Origin: Eledone cirrhosa | Taxonomy: Eukaryota | Direction: 5' to 3' | NCBI GenBank assembly: GCA_964016885.1 | Contig: OZ024743.1 | Span: forward strand, 252,836,001 to 252,900,000 | Length of the DNA: 64,000 nt | Shown: positions 8,929-31,821 of the stretch, piece after piece | How the letters are laid out: each line of letters opens with the position of its first letter | Numbering within the stretch: position 1 is the stretch's first letter | The notes under the pieces: model-generated | What the model saw: the letters and a program-made list of their open reading frames with translations, nothing else | Database searches by the model: none | Told to the model about the DNA's origin: nothing | Program-made: the position numbers and the translations under genes

Positions 8929-8982
<54 letters not shown>

Positions 8983-9025
8983 AATAATGATAATAATAAT
9001 AATAATGATAATGATAATAATAATA
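8928..9025. repeat. (TAA)n/(TAATGA)n microsatellite
   Basis: Seen directly in the sequence. Confidence 0.95.
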
Positions 9026-9027
9026 AA

Positions 9028-9145
9028 ACAGCAAGAACCCTCCGATACGTCCTGAATATCTGAGGCTGCAGGTAGTGGCTTGATATTCAATCCAACGGAC
9101 TTTCCAGTTAACCAACATCAATGACTGAGATTCAAGGAATAACAA
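9028..9145 (+). mobile_element. Extreme 3' end of Dong/R4 family A
   Basis: AGCAAGAACCCTCCGATACGTCCTGAATATCTGAGGCTGCAGGTAGTGGCTTGATATTCA is identical to 12480-12539. Confidence 0.9.
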
Positions 9146-9170
9146 CAACAATGATAATGATAATGATTAT

Positions 9171-11048
9171 ACCAGGCCCAGAGGGTGTGCAGGGGTATTG
9201 GATTAAAAATATAACATCCCTCAACCCAAAACTGACAACCATGTTCAATGACTGCTTGATGTCAGGTGAGGTACCAGAGTGGTTGACAAAAGGTACCACA
9301 GTTCTGGTAATGAAAGACCGAATCAAGGGTAATGATGTTACCAACTATAGACCTATTACATGTCTGTCCGTAATGTGGAAACTGTTGCCAAGCATTGTGT
9401 CTGAGGAAATCTACCATCACCTCCACACAAACAACTTGTTACCGGACGAACAAGAAGGATGCCGAAAGAAGTCCCGTGGTACAAATGACCAGTTACTTAT
9501 GGATAAGATGGCAATGAGGAATTGCAAGAGGAGACACACTGGTCTTGCCATGGGATGGATAGAGTACAAAAAGGCATTTGACATGGTGCCTCATTCTTGG
9601 ATCACCAAAAGCCTAGAGATCTTCAAGGTGGCAGATAACATCAGACAGTTGTTGAGCAAAGGTATGAAGTCCGGGAAAACAGAGTTAACATCAGCTGGAG
9701 AATCCTTGGAAGGCGTGAAGATCAAGAGAGGTATCTTCCAGCGAGATACTCTGTCCCCTCTGTTGTTTTTCCTTGCCCTGGTGCCCCTGACAATTATACT
9801 GCGAAAAGTGAGAGCAGGATACAAGTTGGGAAAGGGACAGCTTACCATCAATCACCTCCTCTTCATTGACGATCTTAAGCTCTTTGGGAAGAGTGAGAAG
9901 GAGTTGGCTATGCTTGTTGAGACTGTCCATATTTTCAGCAATGATATATGTATGCAATTTGGTATTAGTAAGTGTGGAGTCCTTGTGATGAAGAGGGGTA
10001 AATTGAGCAGAAGCAACGGAATCCAGGTAAAAACAGGTAAGATGATAAAGGAAATTGACATTGAAGAAGGATACGAGTATTTGGGTGTTCTGGAGGCTGA
10101 TGACATCAAGAACCAAAAAATGAAGGAATTGATAAGATCTGAATACATTTTGAGAGTAAGGAGTGTATTAAATTCACATCTGAACAGTAGGAATGCCATA
10201 AGTGCAGTAAATTCCCAAGCTGTGTCTATTATTAGGTTAAGTGCGGGAAGTCTGAGATGGAATGTTGCTGAACAAAAAGAAATGGATAGGAAGACTAGGA
10301 AGCTATTGACTATCTACAACATGTTTCACAAGAGGAGTGATGTCGATATACTCTACTTAAGGAGATCTGAAGGTGGAAGAGGTCTTATCAGCATAGAGGA
10401 TTGTGTTCAGATGGAGAAAAACAACCTACATAAATACGTGACTGATAGTAAGGGGCCAATGCTCAGAATTGTAGTGAAGGAGAGGACAATAAACCAAGGG
10501 ATGCCCAAGGAGGAAATAACAACAAGGAGAAAGAGCACCTTTCATGAAAAATCCCTTCATAGTACCTTCTTTGAGAAAACTGAATTCAGAGATCCACAGA
10601 CATGGAACTGGTTGAATAGGGGAGACCTTGAAAAGTCTACAGAAGGAATGCTAATGGCTGCGCAAGAGCAGGCCCTCAAAACGAAGAGGCTGAAACACCA
10701 TATTTACAAGGAAGAGGCTAGCCCACTGTGCAGGATCTGTGGAGAGAGAGAGAAGACTCTGGTTCACATTGTATCCGAGTGTAAACACCTAGCCCAGACT
10801 CACTATAAAGGCTGGAGACATGATGTGATGGGCAGGGTGATCCGCTGGCACCTATGCAAAGTAAACAATTTACCTCATTCTGAGAAGTGGTATGAGCATA
10901 AGCCAGAGTCGGTGTAAGAAAACGATCAGGTGAAGGTGCTGTTGGATTTTAGGATACAGACGGACAAGAAACTGGCACACAATAGACCTGACCTGGTGGT
11001 TTTGGACAAGGAAAAAAGATTGTGCCTGATTGTAGATGTAGCCTCCAT
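9171..11048 (+). mobile_element. Dong/R4 family A, copy 1: RT, CCHC knuckle and start of RLE; truncated at both ends
   Basis: Open frame to 10917 with NYRPITCL, KKAFDMVPH, GIFQRDTLSPLLF, LLFIDDLKL, GGRGL, CRICGEREKTLVHIVSEC and RHD, followed by NRPDLVV. Confidence 0.95.
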
Positions 11049-11082
11049 CAATGGATGGTAAAAGAAAATTGGCCCGCCCCGC

Positions 11083-12560
11083 AGATCAAGAGAGTTATCT
11101 TCCAGGGAGATAGTTTGTCCCATCTGTTGTTTTTCCTTTCCCTGATACCCCTGACCATTGTATTGCGAAAAGTGACAGCAGGATACAAGTTGGAAAAAGA
11201 GAGCTTACCATCAACCACCTCCTCTTCATGGACGATCTTAAACTCTTTGGGAAGAGTGAGAAGAAGTTGGATGTACTTGTTGACACTGTCCGTATTTTCA
11301 GCAATGATATATGTATGCAATTTGGTATTAATAAATGTGGGGTCCTAGTGATAAAGAGGGGTAAATTGAGCAGAAGCAACGGAATCCAGGTACCAACAGG
11401 TGAGATGATAAAGGAAATTGACACTGAAGAAGGATACAAATATTTAGGTGTTCTGGAGGCAGATGACATCAAGAACTAAAAAATGAAGGAATTGATAAGG
11501 TCTGAGTACATTAGGAGAGTAAGGAGCGTATTAAAATCACATCTAAATAGTAGGAATGTCATAAGTGCAGTGCATTGCCGAGCGGTGTCTATTATTAGGT
11601 ACAGTGCGGGACTGTGTTCAGATGGAGAAAAACAACCTGCACAAATACGTGACTGACAGTAGGGAGCCAATGTTCAGAATTGTAATGAAGGAGGGGACAA
11701 TAGACCAGGGGATGTCCAAGGAGGAAATAACAGCAAGGAGGAAGAGCAACCTTCATGAAAAATCCCTTCATAGTACCTTCTTTGAGAAAACTGAATTAAG
11801 AAATCCACAGACATGGAACTGGTTAAAAAGAGGAGACCTTAAAAAGGCTACAGAAGGAATGCTAATGGTTGCGCAGGAGCAGGCACTCAAAACGAAGTGG
11901 GTGAAACACCATATTTACAAGTGGAGGCTAGCCCACTGTGTAGGATCTGTGGAGAGAGAGAGAGGAGACTGTGATTCACATTGTATCCGAGTGTAAACAC
12001 CTAGCCCAGACTCACTATAAAGGCTGGAGACATGATGTGATGGGCAGGGTGATCCACTGGCACCTATGCAAAGTAAACAATTTACCACATTCTGAGAAGT
12101 GGTATGAGCATAAGCCAGAGTCGGTGATAGAAAACGATCAGATAAAGGTGCTGTGGGACTTTAGGATACAGACGGACAAGTAAGTGGAACAGAATAGGCC
12201 TGACCTGGTGATTTTGGACAAGGAAAAAAAATTGTGCCTGATTGTAGATGTAGCCTGCCCATTTGACACAAGAGAGCAAGAAAAGGAGAGTGAGAAAATT
12301 AACCGATGCCAGGACTTAAAATGGGAGGTAAAAAGGATTTGGGACTGCCAGGAAGTCAGAGTTGTGCCGATTGTCATAGGAGCACTAGGTACTATCTCAA
12401 AGAGTTTCCAAGGATGGTTAAAGAAAATTAGTCCAGCCCCGCTTTTTGGAACACTTCAAAAGGCATGCTTGCTGGGAACAGCAAGAACCCTCCGATACGT
12501 CCTGAATATCTGAGGCTGCAGGTAGTGGCTTGATATTCATTTCAACAAACTTTCAAAGAA
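11083..12560 (+). mobile_element. Dong/R4 family A, copy 2 (RT C-half, RLE and 3' UTR; frameshifts and internal deletion)
   Basis: Repeats 9719 onward. Carries MDDLKLFGK and NRPDLVILDKEKKLCLIVDVACPFD..VPIVIGALG..LQKACLLGTARTLR. Followed by an AAT-rich tail. Confidence 0.95.
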
Positions 12561-12609
12561 TAATATTAATAATAATAATAATAAATGAATAAATAAATAT
12601 GTGAGTGGT

Positions 12610-14990
12610 GCGATCTTATCTTAAACCTTACATTCTCGCTATCACTATTATATATTCCTTTAAATATAATTTGTTAAACTTGCTAAGTTTTACGCAAATC
12701 TTCGAGTACCTATTAAACTTTTAACCTCTGCTCCATCCCATATTCTACCCCCTACCCATCCATCATGCTGGTTCCTGCCCCCCCCCCTCCCTCTCTATAC
12801 ATATAAGATAAAACCCTACCAAAATTAATCAAAATCGCCAACTCGCTATTTCTGGGATGGCTGTTCCCTTCGGTATAAAGTAACGTTCAAATTTTTCTCG
12901 ATTCTTCTCTCCATTCGAACCCATTCATTCAATCACTTCTATGTCCTAATTTCACACTATATCATATTTTCACCATTATATATCATATTTTCCCTATCAC
13001 CGCATTTTCTCTATCGTAATTTCTTAAACAAAACAAATCTTGTATTTTCGTTTATTGTTAAATTATGCCCAATTTTTTCTCGATTCTTCTCTCCATTCGA
13101 ACCCATTCATTCAATCACTTCTATGTCCTAATTTCACACTATATCGTATTTTCACCATTATATATCATATCTTTTCTCTAAAAATCATATTTTCCCTATC
13201 ACCGCATTTTCTCTATTGTAATTTCTTAAACAAAACAAATCTTGTATTTTCGTTTATTGTTAAATTATGCCCAATTTTTTCTCGATTCTTCTCTCCATTC
13301 GAACCCATTCATTCAATCACTTCTATGTCCTAATTTCACACTATATCGTATTTTCACCATTATATATCATATCTTTTCTCTAAAAATCATATTTTCCCTA
13401 TCACCGCATTTTCTCTATTGTAATTTCTTAAACAAAACAAATCTTGTATTTTCGTTTATTGTTAAATTATGCCCAATTTTTTCTCGATTCTTTTCTCCAT
13501 TCGAACCCATTCATTCAATCACTTCTATGTCCTAATTTCACACTATATCGTATTTTCACCTTTATATATCATATCTTTTCTCTAAAAATCATATTTTCCC
13601 TATCACCGCATTTTCTCTATTGTAATTTCTTAAACAAAACAAATCTTGTATTTTCGTTTATTGTTAAATCATGCCCAAAATACGGCGATCTTATCTTAAA
13701 CCTTACATTCTCGCTATCACTATTATATATTCCTTTAAATATAATTTGTTAAACTTGCTAAGTTTTACGCAAATCTTCGAGTACCTATTAAACTTTTAAC
13801 CTCTGCTCCAACCCATATTCTACCCCCTACCCATCCATCATGCTGGTTCCTGCCCCCCCTCCCTCTCTATACATATAAGATAAAACCCTACCAAAATTAA
13901 TCAAAATCGCCAACTCGCTATTTCTGGGATGGCTGTTCCCTTCGGTATAAAGTAACGTTCACATTTTTCTCGATTCTTCTCTCCATTCGAACCCATTCAT
14001 TCAATCACTTCTATGTCCTAATTTCACACTATATCATATTTTCACCATTATATATCATATTTTCCCTATCACCGCATTTTCTCTATCGTAATTTCTTAAA
14101 CAAAACAAATCTTGTATTTTCGTTTATTGTTAAATTATGCCCAATTTTTTCTCGATTCTTCTCTCCATTCGAACCCATTCATTCAATCACTTCTATGTCC
14201 TAATTTCACACTATATCGTATTTTCACCATTATATATCATATCTTTTCTCTAAAAATCATATTTTCCCTATCACCGCATTTTCTCTATCGTAATTTCTTA
14301 AACAAAACAAATCTTGTATATTCGTTTATTGTTAAATTATGCCCAATTTTTTCTCGATTCTTCTCTCCATTCGAACCCATTCATTCAATCACTTCTATGT
14401 CCTAATTTCACACTATATCGTATTTTCACCATTATATATCATATCTTTTCTCTAAAAATCATATTTTCCCTATCACCGCATTTTCTCTATTGTAATTTCT
14501 TAAACAAAACAAATCTTGTATTTTCGTTTATTGTTAAATTATGCCCAATTTTTTCTCGATTCTTCTCTCCATTCGAACCCATTCATTCAATCACTTCTAT
14601 GTCCTAATTTCACACTATATCGTATTTTCACCATTATATATCATATCTTTTCTCTAAAAATCATATTTTCCCTATCACCGCATTTTCTCTATTGTAATTT
14701 CTTAAACAAAACAAATCTTGTATTTTCGTTTATTGTTAAATTATGCCCAATTTTTTCTCGATTCTTTTCTCCATTCGAACCCATTCATTCAATCACTTCT
14801 ATGTCCTAATTTCACACTATATCGTATTTTCACCATTATATATCATATCTTTTCTCTAAAAACCATATTTTCCCTATCACCGCATTTTCTCTATTGTAAT
14901 TTCTTAAACAAAACAAATCTTGTATTTTCGTTTATTGTTAAATCATGCCCAAAATACGGCGATCTTATCTTAAACCTTACATTCTCGCTA
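12610..14990 (+). repeat. Higher-order tandem array: 2 x [~280-bp leader + 4 or 5 monomers of 202 bp], ending in a third 31-bp leader start fused to the RTE
   Basis: GCGATCTTATCTTAAACCTTACATTCTCGCTA occurs at 12610, 13685 and 14959. The monomer marker CTCGATTC occurs at 12897, 13079, 13281, 13483 and at 13969, 14151, 14353, 14555, 14757. Confidence 0.95.
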
Positions 14991-15240
14991 ACAACCCATC
15001 ATCCCTCCCCCCCGCCCCCACGCACCACCATTATTACGTGGACCAATCATAAGTCAGAGGCCCATACTATCGCTTAACTGGTTGCTTTTCGATATGATGG
15101 ATGGACTACGGAATTCTGGAGAGTTGAAGAGAGAAAAATGTGGACGCTCAGCGACAATGCCAAAGATAAAGCCAAATTCACCTCGTGGACGAGAATGCAA
15201 GCACTCCTCCTTGTTTCGGCCCAGGATGGCTAACATAACC
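14981..15240 (+). ncRNA. Candidate HDV-like self-cleaving ribozyme at the RTE 5' end
   Basis: P1 ATTCTCG (14981-87)/CGAGAAT (15190-96); P3 TTC/GGA around L3 ACCTCGT (15180-86); P4 CA(C)TCCT/AGGATG; J4/2 G-CTAA with C15230. P2 is not canonical. Confidence 0.55.
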
Positions 15241-18200
15241 CCATCCCCCCCCGCGCCCCACCGCTCCCACCCTCCAAACGCAATCCAAAACTTCAGAGTT
15301 GGTACCATGAATGTAGGCACCTTAAAGGGTCGCTCTAACGAGGTTGTAGAAATGCTTGAACGTAAGGAGGTCGATGTTTGTTGTATTCAAGAGACCAGGT
15401 GGAGGGGAGGGTCGGCTAGATTCATCGTGGGTAAAGAGCGATGCTATAAGCTTTTCTGGGTGGGAAATGACAATGGGTTGGGTGGGGTAGGAATCATGGT
15501 AGCAGAAAAGTGGGCAGATAAGATAATAGACGTAAATAGAGTGAACGACAGAATAATTAAAATAAGACTTGTCCTCAATAAAACTACGGTGACAGTAATA
15601 TCTGCGTACGCACCCCAATCCGGACAGCCCCGCGCTATAAAAGACAGATTCTACGAGACACTGATGCTCGCTACCTCCCAAATAACCGACAGTGACTATA
15701 TAGTTATTGCAGGCGACCTAAATGGTCACGTTGGACAACATTGTGACGGCTATGACGGAATCCATGGAGGCTATGGGTTGCGTACTAGAAATGAGGAAGG
15801 CTCCAGAATCCTGGAATTCTGCGACGCAAATAACTTAACTATCTGTAACACTAACTTCAAAAAACGAGACAATCACTTGATCACCTATAGATCGGGGGAA
15901 CACACAAGCCAGGTAGATTATATCCTTACCAGAAGACGTGACAGAGTGTCTGTTGTTAACACTAAATCCCACCCCCATGAAGAATTCACCTCCCAACATA
16001 GACTGATAATTAGCGACCTCATAGTCAGGACGAGACGTACTAGACAGCGAAAGAGGACTATCCTCAGGAGAAAAATATGGAAGCTAAAGGACCCCATAGC
16101 CAGAAATAAATTTCAAAGCAAATTACTTGACGCTTTCGACAGTAAGGAAGAGCAATTAGAGTCGTATAATATAGAGGAACAGTGGGAATTCCTGAGAGCA
16201 AACCTGCTGACGGCGGCAGACGAAGTCTGTGGCTGGAGCAGGCCTGTAGGTAGGAGGAGAGTAACATGGTGGTGGAACAGTAAGGTGGAGGAGTCAATTA
16301 AGGCCAAAAAGCAGGCTTGGAAAGTATGGCGGGATGGGGGAAGTAGAGAAGACTATCAAGTGGCCAGGAGGGAAGCTAGGAGACAAGTGTACTTCGCAAG
16401 AAGGGAAGCAGAGGAAAGAAAGTTCAAGCATGTTCTACAACGGGAGGACCAAAAACGTGAGGTGTTCAGGATTGCCAGGCAATGTGTCAAGGAAAACCGT
16501 GATATTGTCGGGGAGAAGTGTGTACTTAACGATGATGGCATACTTGCCATCACCGACGCTGATAAGAAGGTAGCTTGGAAGTGTCACTACGAAAGGCTTC
16601 TAAATGAGGAGAACAAATGGGAGAAAGACAGTCTCCCCCAGATCGATCCAATAGAGGGACCAGCAGTGTTAGTTAAAGGTAGTATAATAAGTAAGGCAAT
16701 CAAAGATATGAAGACGGGTAAGGCGGCTGGGCCTTCGGAAATAGTTGCTGAGATGCTGAAGGCATCTGGTTCGGTGGGACACACCATGGTCACCCGGATA
16801 GTTAACCAAGTCGTACAGAATGGGGTTGTTCCGAAGTAATGGCGTAGCAGCATCATCGTTAACTGCTATAAGGGAAAAGGAGATGCCCTAGATAGGAGTA
16901 ACTATAGAGGCATTAAATTAATCGACCAGGTCATGAAGGTCACGGAAAAAGTAATAGCGCAACTAATCAGAGAGAGAATTGATCTAGATGAAATGCAGTT
17001 CGGGTTTGTGTCAGGCAAAAGTACCACAGACGCTCTTTTCATTGTACGACAACTACAGGAGAAGTACCTAGCTAAAAGTAAACCCCTATACTTAGCTTTT
17101 GTCGACTTGGAGAAAGCCTTCGACAGAGTCCCCCGTTCCATTATCTGGTGGTCTCTTAGAAAACTAGGTGTTGACGAATGGCTTGTGAGAGCTATACAAG
17201 CCATGTATAAAGAAACAGTCAGTAAGGTTAGAATTAACAACGAATATAGTGAAGAGTTTAGCGTAAAAGTTGGTGTCCATCAGGGCTCTGTACTTAGCCC
17301 CCTACTATTTATTATTGCCCTTCAGGCTATAACAGAGGAGTTCAAGACCGGCTGCCCATGGGAACTCCTATACGCAGATGATCTAACGCTCATAGCTGAA
17401 TCAATGACCGAACTAGAGAAGAAATTCCAAACGTGGAAGCACGGCCTAGAATCAAAAGGCCTTAAAATTAACCTGGCTAAGACTAAAGTTCTAGTTTGTA
17501 GGAAAGAAAATAAGGCGGCGGTCCCATCGGGGAAATGGCCATGCTCAGTGTGTAGGAAAGGCGTAGGTAGAAACTCCATTTTATGTCCCAAATGCAAAGT
17601 ATGGGTGCATAAAAGATGTAGTGGGATCACAGGTAAGCTAACTAAGAACATAGATTTTACATGTGGCCGGTGCTCTGGTGCAATAAGTAGCAGCAAGTGC
17701 CCACAAAATACTAGCTCCTTCAACTGCGCAGAGGGTTCTATAGAAATAGTGGACAGCTTCCGTTATCTGGGTGACAAAATCAGCAGTGGGGGAGGGTGCT
17801 CTGAAAGTACAGTAGCTAGAGTCAGAACTGGATGGAAAAAGTTCAGAGAGCTTATACCACTATTAGCCGCTAGAGGGTTCTCCCTAAAAATGAAAGGCAG
17901 GTTATACGATGCCTGCATACGAACAGCAATGCTGCATGGCGGTGAGACCTGGGCATTGTGTGCAGAGGATATACGCAGACTAGAGAGGAACGAAGCTTGC
18001 ATGCTCCGCTGGATGTGCAATAGTAATATACGTAAACGGCAAAGCATAAACGAACTAAGGAAAAAATTAGAAATAAGAGGGATCAGATGTTGTTTACTCG
18101 AGAGAAGGCTATGTTGGTACGGTCACGTGATGCGCATGAAAGACGACAGCTGTATAACAAAGTGCAGGGCAATAAAGATAGACGGTAGCCACGGAGTAGG

Positions 18201-18327
18201 CAGACCCAGAAAAACATGGGACGAGCTGATAAATTCCGACCTCACACGCTTACACCTCTCCAAGACAATGTCACTGGACCGAGACCTTTGGCGGTACTCA
18301 GTAATAGAGAAGACCCGCCTTACCTAA
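15226..18327 (+). pseudogene. RTE polyprotein: APE endonuclease, reverse transcriptase and PHD-type C4HC3 finger; one in-frame TAA at 16837-16839
   Basis: ORFs 15082-16839 and 16933-18327 are in the same frame. Motifs: RVGTMNVGTL, IQETRW, IAGDLNGH, SQVDYIL, SQHRL, FVDLEKAFD, GVHQGSVLSPLLF, LLYADD, GRPRKTW. The ATG at 15226 is an inferred start. Confidence 0.93.
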
Positions 18328-18495
18328 ATACAAAGTAAAAACCTACTACAGTCAGTAGGCACCTCTATCAAAACACACCCACGTCCCACCACCTCCACCC
18401 CACCCACACCGCCCCTTTCAATGTAAAGTTATGTTGGTCCCACAACATCCAGGCCGAAACAAATGAGATCGTGTAGGTGTCACGACAAAAAACAC

Positions 18496-18839
18496 ACAGT
18501 CCACGCTGTAAATGTGGCCGTGTAGGCAACACGGTAAAAACCTCCCAGCCCCACACTGTAAATGTGGTTGGTGTTAGGAAGGGCATCCAGCTGTAGAAAA
18601 CCCGCCAGACAGTCCACGCTGTAATGTGGCCGTGTAGGCAACACGGTAAAAACCTCCCAGCCCCACACTGTAAATGTGGTTGGTGTTAGGAAGGGCATCC
18701 AACTGTAGAAAACCCGCCAGACAGTCCACGCTGTAATGTGGCCGTGTAGGCAACACGGTAAAAACCTCCCAGACCCACACTGTAAATGTGGTTGGTGTTA
18801 GGAAGGGAATCCAACTGTAGAAAACCCGCCAGACAGTCC
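18496..18839 (+). repeat. Three ~112-bp tandem units in the RTE 3' UTR
   Basis: ACAGTCC at 18496, 18609, 18721 and 18833. Confidence 0.95.
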
Positions 18840-19438
18840 TATGCGAGCAAGACAACCACTCTTGCCTCAAGTGGGAAAACCCCCGTCCAAACCCATGCAA
18901 GCATGGAACACGGACGCTAAACCTGATGATGATGATGATGATGATGATATATATATATATATATATATCTACATGCTTTCTAATAATTAGGACCAGATAT
19001 ATAATACAGGTGAAAGAAATTAGTCATCTGTGAGTAATAATCTTGGCTATGAGGAGAGGAGAGTGCAGTATGGAATGTCAATTAACTCCAATAGTGATGC
19101 TTGTTGAAGCAGCACTGATAGAAGTTGCAGAAAAAACTGACAATAAAATGGCAAAAGTGGTCTGCAATTCCAGATTGATAAAAAATAAAACTAAAGAAAT
19201 ATATAAACAACAAAAAAATTGCTTACATTGAAAAAAAACCGAAACAAAAATAAAATGAAAAATAATTTAAAAAGTAAAACATACTAAAATGAGCTATAAA
19301 AGAATAAATAAATTATGTAACGCATTAATTAATGAAACAAAAAATATAAAAAATTGCAAAATAAAATATTTATTTTTAGTTTTACATGCTAATATTTTTC
19401 ATTTGAATGATTGTTTTTTTAAATATTTATTGTTGTTG

Positions 19439-19488
<50 letters not shown>

Positions 19489-20944
19489 TTGCAATTTGCA
19501 TTTGAGTGTGTTCTATTATGTTTTAATGACACACCTGCATACTCTATTTAGCAGGATTAACAGTGGAAAGTCAATTTCTTCTCTTTGATAACATGAATTG
19601 AATAGAATATTAGGAACGTCCACTTCCAATTTCAATAAACTGTTGCTAATTCTATTTCTCCTGCTCTTATTCATCATCATCTATCTTATATCCATTTTTC
19701 TATGCTTGCATCGAGAAGACAAATTATTGTGTGTATAAAGTGGCAGGGAAAATGAGTGCAAGATGCAACAACATTCAAATGGCAACAGAATTTAATACAA
19801 AAGATAAAAACTTATAAAGCATGAACATTTTTAAAAGTAATACAAAATATTATTTATTTTTGTTTAGAGCATAACTAAAACTTTTTTGCATAAAAGTATG
19901 ATAGAAGGTTTTTGATATATATAAACGCTTAAGCCTTTGTATCAACATATGTCTAATGGCCTGAATATAATCAAGAATTTGAAGAGATAACTGATTTTCT
20001 CATTATTAAATTTGTATTTTGAAAGCTAGAATAATATTTCAGTGAAAAATATTTTTTTAGCAGTCCAAGGATGTCTGATAAACAAATATTACACACTGAA
20101 ATTTACATTAATACATTTTTCAAATATATTCCAATCGTTGTTAGGTGGTGTGTTTATCAGAAATGCTATGTGCACCTAAGTTAGAATAGATACACTGTAT
20201 TCCTGAGTGTTGTAAGAAGCAACTAAAAATGTTGGTGCCAAGAATGACATCCTACCATAAAACATTGCCACAATAAGAATCATGAAGCTTTCATAGGATC
20301 CGCAGACACAAACCTGATCCCCACTTTAGCAGGGGAAATGGCCTTAAATGCGTGTTGTTGTTTCTAGAAGATTGAGAAATATTGTGTCTCATTATAATAT
20401 TGGCATTTTCTTTTATTTAAAAAAAAATGACAAAAAATAGAGTAAACTTTCATTTAATAATCTTAAAAAATTTAAATATCAAAATGAGAGGTTAAAACCA
20501 TTATATAGAACTGAATCAATAAACTCAAGTGAAACTTAAAATACTAGAGCCATTTTATCCACATAAACATCATCTGTGTGTCTCCAAATGTTTGACCATT
20601 CTCCACTTTAGAATATAAATTGTTTGTTTTGTCATAATAAAAGATTACAATAAAAAACTATTGATTTAATGTTATGCAGATTTTTCACCTAATAGATAAG
20701 ATGGAAGCAGGGAATGGTCTCACTAAAAGCCAAGAGATTGATGTTGTGTTGGAAACAAAAATAAAATGGATAATGAATACACAAGAATTTTTTTGTGTGT
20801 TTGTGTGTTGTTTTTAAAGAATGTATCTAAAAAAGTATTTCTTCAGGTTCAGTAGTCATAATCCATAAATTCCTGTCAAGTGTGGCAATTTTAACATGAG
20901 ATTTAAATAGTAATAAGGATACGAAGGAAAAAAAAAAGACTATA

Positions 20945-21511: not shown

Positions 21512-21870
21512 AAAAAAGATTGTACCCGATTGTAGATGTAGCCTGCCCCTTTGACACAAGAGTGCAAGAAGGAAAAAAATTAACTTATACCAGGATTTAA
21601 AGTGGGAATTAAAAAGGTTTTGGGACTGTCAAGAGATCAGGGTTGTCCTGATTGTCATAGAAGCACTAGGTACTATCTTGAAGAGTTTTCAAGAATAGTT
21701 AAAGAACATTAGTCTAGACCCCTTTTTTGCAACACTTCAAAAGGCATGCTTGCTGGGAACAGCAAGAACCCTTCGATATGTCCTGAATATCTGAGGCTGC
21801 AGGTAGCGACTTGATGTTCATTTGAACAAATTTTCCAGTTAAATCACATCAATGACTGAGACATCAAGAA
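21512..21870 (+). mobile_element. Dong/R4 family A 3' fragment
   Basis: Matches 12226-12550 (IVDVACPFD..LQKACLLGTART) and the 3' UTR of 9060-9140. Confidence 0.9.
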
Positions 21871-27869: not shown

Positions 27870-30039
27870 GGTTTAGCGTCCGTGTTCCACGCTTGCATGG
27901 GTTTGGATGGGGGTTTTCCCACTTGAGGCAATAGTGGTTGTCTTGCTCGCATAGGACTGTCTGGCGGGTTTTCTACAGTTGGATGCCCTTCCTAACACCA
28001 ACCACATTTACAGTGTGGTACTGGGAGGTTTTTACTGTGTTGCCTACACGGCCACATTACAGCATGGACTGTCTGGCGGGTTTTCTACAGCTGGATGCCC
28101 TTCCTAACACCAATCACATTTACAGTGTGGGGCTGGGAGGTTTTTACCGTGTTGCCTACACGGCCACATTTACAGCGTGGACTGTGTGTTTTTTGTTGTG
28201 ACACCTACACGATCTCATTTGTTTCGGCCTGGATGTTGTGGGACCAACATAACTTTACATTGAAAGGGGCGGTGTGGATGGGGTGGAGGTGGTGGGACGG
28301 GGGTGTGTTTTGATAGAGATGCCTACTGACTGTAGTAGGTTTTTACTTTGTATTTAGGTAAGGCGGGTCTTCTCTATTACTGAGTACCGCCAAAGGTCTC
28401 GGTCCAGTGACATTGTCTTGGAGAGGTGTAAGAGTGTGAGGTCAGAATTTATCATGTCGCCCCAGGTTTTTCTGGGTCTGCCTACTCCGTGGCTACCGTC
28501 TATCTTTATTGCCCTGCATTTGTTATACAGCTGTCGTCTTACATGCGCATCACGTGACCGTACCAACGTAGCCTTCTCTCGAGTAAACAACATCTGATCC
28601 CTCTTATTTCTAATTTTTTCTTAGTTCGTTTATGCTTAGCCGTTCACGTATATTACTATTGCACATCCAGCGGAGCATGCAAGCTTCGTTCCTCTCTAGT
28701 CTGCGTATATCCTCTGCACACAATACCCAGGTCTCACTGCCATGCAGCATTGCTGTTCGTATGCAGGCATCGTATAACCTGCCTTTCATTTTTAGGGAGA
28801 ACCCTCTAGCGGCTAATAGTGGTATAAGCTCTCTGAACTTTTTCCATCCAGTTCTGACTCTAGCTACCGTACTTTCAGAGCACCCTCCCCCACTGCTGAT
28901 TTTGTCACCCAGGTAACGGAAGCTGTCCACTAATTCTATAGAACCCTCTGAGCAATTGAAAGAGCTAGTATTTAGTGGGCACTTGCTGCTACTTATTGCA
29001 CCAGAGCACTGGCCACATGTAAAATCTATGTTCTTAGTTAGCTTACCTGTGATCCCACTACATCTTTTATGCACCCATACTTTGCATTGGGGACATAAAA
29101 TGGAGTTTCTACCTACGCCTTTCCTACACACTGAGCATGGCCATTTCCCGGAAAGGACCGCCGCCTTATTTTCTTTCCTACAAATTAGAACTTTAGTCTT
29201 AGCCAGGTTAATTTTAAGGCCTTTTGATTCTAGACCGTGCTTCCATGTTTGGAATTTCTTCTCTAGTTCGGTCATTGATTCAGCTATGAGCGTTAGATCA
29301 TCTGTGTATAGGAGTTCCCATGGGCAGCCGGTCTTGAACTCCTCTGTTATAGCCTGAAGGGCAATAATAAATAGTAGGGGGCTAAGAACAGAGCCCTGAT
29401 GGACACCAACTTTTACGCTAAACTCTTCACTATATTCGTTGTTAATTCTAACCTTACTGACTGTTTCTTTATACATGGCTTGTATAGCTCTCACAAGCCA
29501 TTCGTCAACACCTAGTTTTCTAAGAGCCCACCAGATAATGGAACGGGGGACTCTGTCGAAGGCTTTCTCCAAGTCGACAAAAGCTAAGTATAGGGGTTTA
29601 CTTTTAGCTAGGTACTTCTCCTGTAGTTGTCGTACATTGAAAAGAGCATCTGTGGTACTTTTGCTTGACACAAACCCGAACTGCATTTCATCAAGATCAA
29701 TTCTCTCTCTGATTAGTTGCGCTATTACTTTTTCCGTGACCTTCATGACCTGGTCAATTAATTTAATGCCTCTATAGTTACTCCTATCTAGGGCATCTCC
29801 TTTTCCCTTATAGCAGTTAACGATGATGCTGCTATGCCAGTCCTTCAGAACAACCCCATTCTGTATGACTTGGTTAACTATCCGGGTGACCATGGCGTGT
29901 CCCACCGAACCAGATGCCTTCAGCATCTCAGCAACTATTTCCGAAGGCCCAGCCGCCTTACCCGTCTTCATATCTTTGATTGCCTTACTTATTGTGCTAC
30001 CCTCGACTAACACTGCTGGTCCCTCTATTGGGTCAATGT

Positions 30040-30042
<3 letters not shown>
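27833..30042 (-). mobile_element. Young 5'-truncated RTE copy (RT-PHD; YADD mutated to YTDD; frameshift near 28610)
   Basis: ORF 28610-30013 is nearly identical to 16670-18060. It has a (GAT)n tail and two 112-bp 3' units. Confidence 0.95.
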
Positions 30043-30082
<40 letters not shown>

Positions 30083-30099
30083 TTATATATATATATATA

Positions 30100-31821
30100 G
30101 AGAGACGAAATGCAGTTCGGGTTTGTGTCATGTAAAAGTACAACAGACGCTCTTTTCATTGTATGACAACTACAGGAGAAGTACCTAGCTAAAAGTAAAC
30201 CCCTATACTTAGCTTTTGTTGACTTGGAGAAAGCCTTTGACAGATTATCTGGTGGGCCCTTAGAAAATTAGGTGTTGATGAATGGCTTGTGAGAGCTATA
30301 CAAGCCATGTATAAAGAAACAGTCAGCAAGGTTAGAATTAACAACGAATATAGTGAAGAGTTTAGCGTAAAAGTTGGTGTTCATCAGGGCTCCGTCCTTA
30401 GCCCCCTACTATTTATTATTGCCCTTCAGGCTATAACAGAGGAGTTCAAGAGCGGCTGCCCATGGGAACTCCTATATGCAGATGATCTAACGCTCATAGC
30501 TGAATCAATGGCTGAACTAGAGAAGAAATTCCAAACATGGAAGCATGGCCTAGAATCAAAAGGCCTTAAAGTTAACTTGTCTAAGACTAAATTTCTAGTT
30601 TATAGGAAGGAAAATAGGGCACCGGTCCCATCTGCGAAATGGCCATGCTCAGTGTGTAGGAAAGGAGTAGGTAGAACCTCCATTTTATGTCCCAAATGCA
30701 AAGTATGGGTACATTAAAGATGTAGTGGGATCACAGGTAAGCTAACTAAGAATATAGATTTTATAAGTGGCGGGTGCTCTGGTGCAATAAGTAGCAGCAA
30801 GTGCCCACAGAATACTATCTCATTCCATTGCACAGATGGTTCTATAGAAATAGTGAACAGCTTCCGTTACCTGGGTGATAAAATCAGCAGTGGGGTGGGT
30901 GCTCTGAAAGTACAGTAGCTAGAGTCAGAATGGGATGGAGAAAGTTCAGAGAGCTTATACCAATATTGGCCGCTAAAGGGTTCTCTCTAAAAATGAAAGG
31001 CAGGCTGTATGATGCCTGCATACGAACAGCAATGTTACATAGCAGTGAGACCTGGGCATTGTGTGCAGAGGATATACGCAGACTGGAGAGAAACGAAGCT
31101 TGCATGCTCCGCTGGATGTGTAATAGTAATATACGTGAACGGCAAAGCATAAACGAACTAAGGGAGAAATTAGGAATAAGAGGGATCAGATGTTGTTTAC
31201 TCGAGAGAAGACTACGTTGGTATGGTCACGTGATGAGCATGAAAGACGACAGCAGTATAAAAAAGTGCAGGGCAATAAAAATAGACGGTAGCCATGGAGT
31301 AGGCAGACCCAGAAAAACCTGGGACGACTTGATAAATTCCGACCTCACACACTTACACCTCTCCAAGACAATATCACTAGACCGAGATCTTTGGCGCTAC
31401 ACAGTAATAGAGAAGACCCACCTTACCTAAGTGCAAAGTGAAACCTACTACAGTCAGTAGGCACCTCTAACAAAATACACCCCGTCCCACTACCCCCACC
31501 CCATCCACACCACCCCTTTCAATGTAAAGTTATGTTGGTACCACAACATCCAGCCCGAAACAAACGAGGTCGTGTAGGTGTCACGACAAAAAAACACACA
31601 GTCCACGCTGTCATGTGGCCGTGTAGGCAACACGGTAAAAACCTCCCAGTTCCATACTGTAAACGTGGTTGGTGTTAGGAAGGGCATCCAGCCGTAGAAA
31701 ACCCGCCAGACAGTCCTATGCGAGCAGGACAACAAATCTTGCCTCAAGTGGGAAAACTCCCGTCCAAACCCATGTGAGCATGGAACATGGACGTTAAACG
31801 ATGATGATGATGATGATGATG

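Follow-up and report, generated by a model that had tools for sequence, protein, structure and literature searches.

An array of tandem repeats placed directly ahead of a LINE raises the question whether the repeats belong to the element and, if they do, what they contribute to it. In the 64,000-nucleotide stretch of DNA analysed here (the window), the ORF of an RTE-type element is preceded by two super-units, each made of a leader followed by four or five monomers. The preliminary description of the locus had reported these super-units, interpreted the array as a modular and expandable promoter cassette, and placed the 5′ end of an HDV-like ribozyme at 14981. The array was mapped from the sequence with Tandem Repeats Finder and alignment (Table 1). 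Both super-units were recovered in this way and are 99.07% identical to each other over 1069 aligned bp. The finer points of the description were also recovered: the first monomer has 182 bp in both super-units, the last monomers share private variants, and ATTCTCG stands at 12632 and 13707 as well as at 14981. A third leader start is truncated before the sequence switches, as was said, but its length is 32 bp (14959–14990) rather than 31. The 5′ junction of the insertion, at 12610, is no natural start of the element, for another copy with the same 182-bp first monomer (L070) runs upstream into a further monomer end. No pieces spanning the array were found among the short contigs of four sequencing runs of one study.

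Table 1. Features of the element and its host side, in window coordinates
Feature	Position	Strand	Remarks
Host side: 3′ remnant of a different, broken LINE, ending in (TAA)n	11500–12600 (5′ limit nominal)	+	RTE inserted in its tail
Leader 1 with tag	12610–12891	+	282 bp; opens with the 32-bp tag that recurs at 14959–14990
TATA-like stretch of leader 1, predicted core promoter	12796–12813	+	aligned with TATAAATA of the sister subfamily; putative function
Predicted transcription start zone of leader 1 (positions 217–234)	12826–12843	+	5′ ends of copies pile up
Four monomers	12892–13684	+	182, 202, 202, 207 bp
Leader 2	13685–13963	+	279 bp
TATA-like stretch of leader 2	13868–13885	+	predicted start zone 13898–13915
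Five monomers	13964–14958	+	182, 202, 202, 202, 207 bp
Third tag (unit boundary)	14959–14990	+	32 bp, equal to the first 32 bp of both leaders
Non-repeated segment	14991–15240	+	shares the ORF frame from 14992 on; ATG codons at 15094, 15157, 15226
HDV-core look-alike (P3, L3, P1 3′ strand)	15177–15198	+	P1 5′ strand 14981–14987; J4/2-like 15229–15233
Single RTE-type ORF	14992–18327	+	APE endonuclease, reverse transcriptase, PHD finger
3′ UTR	18328–18948	+	3.1 copies of a 112-bp repeat (18496–18839), (TGA)n tail (18924–18948), then (TA)n

The APE endonuclease and the reverse transcriptase (RT) of the window element lie in one ORF, and there is no ORF1. The assignment to the RTE clade is made by this architecture together with the 3′ tail, the RT relatives at 41–54% identity carrying no clade names and the matches in the structure library being L1, R2 and group II RTs only. 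One in-frame stop (TAA, 16837–16839) interrupts the ORF of the window copy, while 10 of the 20 best-matching copies keep a stop-free frame of 1097–1120 codons. The segment 14991–15240 is likely to comprise 5′ UTR and then a coding N-terminal extension; extensions ahead of the endonuclease are also present in relatives. The PHD finger (17542–17673), placed after the RT domain, is likewise listed for many relatives in the range of 41–54% identity. The (TGA)n tail is found in 21/21 elements. The 112-bp repeat of the 3′ UTR is one unit shorter in most other copies, and related pieces occur at many SINE-like flank places. A clean target-site duplication of the window copy was looked for and none was found, the flanks being microsatellites. 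From its motifs, the broken LINE on the host side is probably Dong/R4-like. Tandem pieces of it, with (TAA)n tails between them, occupy 8929–12600 (RT domain 9112–10917); the sequence 12477–12554 is repeated at 9027–9104, and 12400–12554 at 21681–21835. More truncated pieces of the present RTE family lie on both strands at 28610–31430.

The 3.0-Gb genome was searched for other copies. A 34-mer of the non-repeated UTR segment, chosen as an unbiased sample, has 236 exact copies, and 94 were read among the first 100 in genome order. Their 5′ ends lie in the array (78), beyond the fetched flank (4), in the tag (7), inside the UTR (4) and near 14981 (1); 89 of the 94 extend 5′ of 14981 and stop at scattered points of the array. 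The median upstream length is 353 bp in a table of 95 copies, from which five of the first 100 places are omitted. In this table, one intact leader core is present in 37/95 copies and two or more in 7/95, the window copy having two. An older leader form, with about 43 extra, monomer-segment-like bases past the tag, was seen in 15/95 copies (including L149, L162, L176 and L193). A query of 14900–15300 gave 40 scored best matches, all spanning the monomer–tag–UTR junction at 99–100%, a sample that favours the junction.

A 25-mer of the monomer has 756 matches in the genome and a 20-mer of the leader has 356. Monomer arrays unlinked to the RTE would have spoken against the preliminary description, and no such array was found: the first 100 of the 756 matches represent 23 loci, and at 23/23 an RTE body follows immediately, always in the one orientation. 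Among 13 further stretches, 11 are linked to the RTE, one consists of 51 bp of leader next to an inverted fragment of the ORF, and one is an array reaching beyond the fetched stretch. No array was seen 3′ of an element among the elements examined. The array 5′ ends abut microsatellite targets, and a simple-repeat string of at least 12 nt is common to both flanks in 16/21 whole elements. Linkage, scattered 5′ ends and matching flanks are what is seen when a 5′ region undergoes reverse transcription and truncation together with its element. The array belongs to a young LINE family of the RTE type, whose 5′ end it forms, and is not a local accident; it travels with the element, 5′-truncated like any LINE.

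The number of monomers per array varies from 1 to over 39. Ten long arrays were mapped. The longest measure at least 26.5 kb (C1), 24.6 kb (C21) and 10.1 kb (C5), and they are followed by arrays of 9.8 kb, 7.9 kb and, in several cases, 3–5.5 kb; the array at 365.7 Mb of C1 stops at an assembly gap. A further array on C2, in which a deleted super-unit variant occurs, covers at least 33 kb (G000:C2:362287761-362321000, L306), neither end having been read. Identical multi-kb blocks, recognised by their monomer variants, recur inside arrays, and one array has 37 identical monomers. An exponential truncation fit leads to an expectation of 0.25 of the 236 copies above 4 kb, and at least 11 loci exceed that length. 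Nested tandem duplication expands the arrays; duplication at the DNA level is the likely cause of the long ones, probably after insertion. Other forms of repetition were encountered as well. At G000:C27:17284498-17299000 (L310, L311) three whole elements stand head to tail with the same 5′ flank and a period of about 5.1–5.4 kb. At G000:C1:7294800-7308000 (L211, L212) about 50 monomers are joined directly to base 225 of the ORF, with no leader, tag or UTR, and both flanks are the same minisatellite. Upstream of L133 and L195, the target microsatellites consist of a single compound unit repeated many times, as though insertion had expanded them.

The positions at which copies end inside the leader bear on where transcription may start. 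Of 30 such ends in the 95 copies, 11 fall in a single 18-nt interval, leader positions 217–234 (scan-permutation p 0.0005–0.0008, the ends of L112, L118 and L128 being taken without their flanking-repeat extensions). The pile-up lies about 25–41 nt past a TATA-like motif (12796–12813), its near edge being 25–31 nt away from that stretch. A genome-wide pattern test was also carried out, in which a (TA)3 flank had to lie within 20 nt of a fixed anchor and three identical junctions on C27 were entered once. It gave 19 loci at leader positions 215–235 versus 4 independent ones (6 places) at 243–263 and none at about 132–152 (p 0.0013); outside the discovery region the counts were 9 versus 2 (p 0.033), the first interval having been chosen after the data were seen. 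A strict TATA pattern matched leader positions 40 and 265 and not 193, showing that the TATA-like motif is imperfect in the window subfamily. A contig of run X4, from a second sample, starts at leader position 217 (window 12826) after a (TA)n flank, at the edge of the hot spot; it may represent a copy that the assembly contains too.

A sister subfamily, with 157 pattern matches in the genome and 14 copies read, provides an independent test. It is about 80% identical to the window subfamily in the non-repeated segment and 90–95% in the ORF. BLASTN of its upstream region against the leader or the monomer gave no match. Alignment nevertheless reveals a colinear cassette, with 174/261 aligned bases identical in the leader and 145/204 in monomer plus tag (67–71%), at z scores of 3.8 and 4.1, respectively, above all of 200 shuffles. 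The sister units are tandem too and switch directly past the tag; the repeat unit of the copies read contains one monomer-like segment. At the place homologous to the TATA-like motif stands TATAAATA, with TCAG at +31, in 5/5 intact leaders. This TCAG fits the TCA core of the Drosophila initiator (PMC1636488). The interval for counting sister ends was set by homology before the search. It holds 29 places, of which five were left out (one internal deletion and four repeats of an identical junction), giving 24 independent ends versus 4 in a downstream control (p 9e-5); the control anchor is absent from about 2/8 units read, so the control is undercounted, and the contrast remains. Of the 24 ends, eight begin within +31 to +34; the positions +27 to +30, though allowed, hold no end.

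The array makes up the 5′ end of this LINE family and is copied along with it, and we consider it probable that each leader of about 282 bp holds a TATA-plus-initiator promoter, the TATA box of which would stay outside the transcript that it directs. RNA polymerase II would start at about leader position 217–222, and the TATA box, lying upstream of the start, would be left behind by its own transcript. Transcription starts leave a trace of this kind in LINE insertions, namely a sharp upstream edge, here at an initiator about 30 nt past a TATA box, and behind it a tail of short truncations; if the pile-up is such a trace, the TATA box lies outside the transcript. There is a precedent for reading ends as starts in mouse L1, where clustered 5′ ends matched 5′-RACE sites (PMC10620060). 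Most non-LTR elements are reported to have internal promoters, and HeT-A to use the promoter of its neighbour (PMC1636488). As for the cassette of the preliminary description, the array is linked to the LINE, modular and expandable, and is likely to act as a promoter cassette, but the start-site signal falls in the leader rather than in the 202-bp monomers, which makes the super-unit the likely repeated unit of promotion. The monomers, downstream of the start, would most likely be amplified UTR segments that may add regulatory strength.

A transcript from the innermost leader should yield a daughter without a TATA box, while one from an outer leader should yield a daughter with its inner leaders intact, which can in turn be a donor. 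Since the leader's own transcript could not copy the promoter, only multi-unit elements would pass it on, and the cost of each jump would be at least one super-unit. The stack would be refilled when unequal exchange or slippage occurs between direct repeats on either side of a leader (monomers and tags), and the refilling may sometimes run on to arrays of satellite size. On balance we lean towards this fuller account, in which the element carries a magazine of upstream TATA promoters, one being spent per jump and replaced by duplication, and runaway refilling seeds the dispersed arrays of 10 to >33 kb.

Could the array instead be a passenger, a slippage-prone 5′ UTR in an element that relies on host read-through transcription, with the pile-up produced by RT stops or by microhomology joining to (TA)n? 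A (TA)3 lies within 20 nt at 69/93 junctions, AT microhomology with the target is present at several ends of the hot spot, which is 18 nt wide, and smaller clusters fall on homopolymers and elsewhere (a poly-C tract at 169–176, the tag start, and five ends at monomer position 1–2). Ribozyme-bearing RTEs are also described in a review as lacking promoters of their own (PMC6765202). We regard this explanation as unlikely, because the hot spot recurs at homologous positions in both subfamilies, between which a third of the leader sequence differs, its upstream edge is sharp at the initiator-like TCAG 31 nt past TATAAATA, target microhomology is absent at many of the ends, and the multi-unit structure is kept in both subfamilies.

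It is quite unlikely, too, that the 202-bp monomers are additive internal promoters as in mouse L1, the leader being secondary. Their variable number, their length of about 200 bp, the CpG observed/expected ratio of 2.15 in the window copy and the five ends at the monomer start would suit such promoters. The density of 5′ ends does not, as it amounts to 0.96 per kb in monomers, where no bin exceeds 1.5, versus 2.76 in leaders, although long arrays depress the monomer rate. Nor does the sister unit, with its one monomer-like segment, or the composition of the window monomers, which have 28% GC, 5% G and 5 CpG. A Pol III upstream promoter was rejected on account of the runs of five or more T inside the monomers.

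The ribozyme proposal, with cleavage at 14981 by an HDV-like ribozyme and with the length of array kept on the RNA set by alternative pairing of P1 to the copies at 12632 and 13707, is very improbable. HDV-like ribozymes are known in RTEs (PMC6765202). A descriptor scan of 12400–15500 found one core, at 15177, with P1 reaching to 14981 and P1, P3 and L3 in order, followed by a GCTAA motif. Shuffling gave a core with a 7-bp P1 in at most 6 of 4000 trials (0.15%), so that the motif is rarer than expected by chance, and this is the sole such match in the window. The unit switch at 14990/14991, 10 nt past the would-be cut site at 14980/14981, also comes just past the P1-like strand in both subfamilies. 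However, an Rfam scan of 11000–20000 returned no ribozyme and one chance match. P2 of R2 ribozymes has at least 5 bp (PMC3774820), and in 0/44 distinct contexts could 4 of 5 pairs be reached after J4/2. The P1 pair probability is 0.001–0.003, by a fold method that cannot show pseudoknots, and the first P1 pair is mismatched in seven copies. Only 1/94 copies ends within 5 nt of 14981, and one copy in the 95-copy table (L133) ends near an inner P1 copy. In the sister subfamily, where 13/14 copies have the region, the core is not conserved: it has six extra bases, an in-frame indel, and there is no P1 complement and an altered J4/2; indels near the look-alike mostly comprise whole codons and leave the frame from ATG 15157 intact. 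The ribozyme end at 14981 is thus not supported, and neither is the switch by alternative P1 pairing, because copies end elsewhere, P2 cannot form, the sister is without the core and the motif lies in a reading frame. We take the look-alike to be a ribozyme-like stretch of coding sequence or, at the very most, a dead relic. A hammerhead-type retrozyme monomer was considered and rejected, there being no Rfam match and no core motif by eye. In a metagenome scan for distant relatives, 79 loci were found, four with the endonuclease start and two with upstream DNA; an HDV core or a long array is present in neither of the two, a sample too small for a verdict. One distant relative (L222:304-421) has 2.5 copies of a 48-bp repeat directly before the endonuclease.

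That the array is a host satellite targeted by the RTE, or a local duplication in the assembly, is hardly credible: arrays of 10 to >33 kb are satellite-like, and of these one runs into an assembly gap and another was followed for part of its length, but every sampled monomer locus lies 5′ of an RTE body and none 3′, the arrays end 5′ at microsatellite targets, and the two units of the window differ.

The array is real and family-wide. Tandem promoter units are already known from mouse and rat L1; for RTE a cassette of this kind appears to be new, none having been found in the open-access literature, supplements and Repbase aside. The transcription of RTE elements is poorly known and is usually put down to internal promoters or to release from host transcripts by a ribozyme. 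If the promoter reading is true, the family would represent a third route, with a start site predicted to the base, and a convergence on the logic of mouse L1 and HeT-A in another clade. If the stack is indeed spent and refilled, its depth would set the fitness of a copy, and the design would have outlasted the turnover of one third of its own sequence. The family also shows the 5′ end of a LINE turning into arrays of satellite size, which would escape assemblies made from short reads as well as repeat pipelines in which tandem repeats are removed, such as that of PMC10294476. If the host is a cephalopod, as its repeat features suggest, the family bears on what drives RTE expression in the octopus brain (PMC9115989).

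Among known systems, the body of the element is like that of HmRTE-e01 and octopus RTE-2_OV, with one ORF for APE and RT, a 3′ simple-repeat tail and many truncated copies; those elements differ in their reported 5′ UTRs of 276 bp and about 600 nt (PMC2887409, PMC9115989). The word "tandem" is absent from the main text of the octopus paper (PMC9115989). The look-alike resembles the HDV-like ribozymes of R2, L1Tc and RTE in that its P1, P3, L3 and J4/2-like motifs are correctly ordered and lie ahead of the endonuclease, and differs in the missing P2, the lack of conservation and of ends at the cut site, and its location in a reading frame. A modular 5′ UTR with promoter activity, the A-module, is found in another non-LTR element, Dictyostelium TRE5-A (PMC5911963). 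TRE5-A differs in its two ORFs and its targeting of tRNA genes. Its A-modules repeat.

Closer parallels are offered by mouse L1 (TF) and rat L1, in which a variable number of tandem units of about 200 bp lies upstream of a non-repeated segment and is copied with the element; in mouse L1 the copies have their 5′ ends concentrated at a single position within the repeat unit, and daughters lose units (PMC10620060, PMC5381506). Those elements belong to the L1 clade, possess ORF1 and have GC-rich monomers each initiating near a YY1 site, whereas the window family has a two-level AT-rich array, a leader hot spot past a TATA-like motif and arrays of tens of kb. Its 5′ ends cluster in the leader, not in each monomer, and the monomers are not GC-rich CpG islands. 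On the promoter reading, the window family would also be like Drosophila HeT-A, "promoting in tandem", and TART, where the promoter lies upstream of the template and comes from the preceding repeat (PMC1636488). As far as sequence can tell, the motif spacing and the 5′-end pile-up fit a tandem promoter of the HeT-A type. In HeT-A the promoter is provided by the 3′ end of a whole neighbouring telomeric element; the copies of the window family are dispersed along chromosomes, not arranged as whole elements head to tail at telomeres, and the corresponding unit would be a dedicated 5′ cassette inside one dispersed element.
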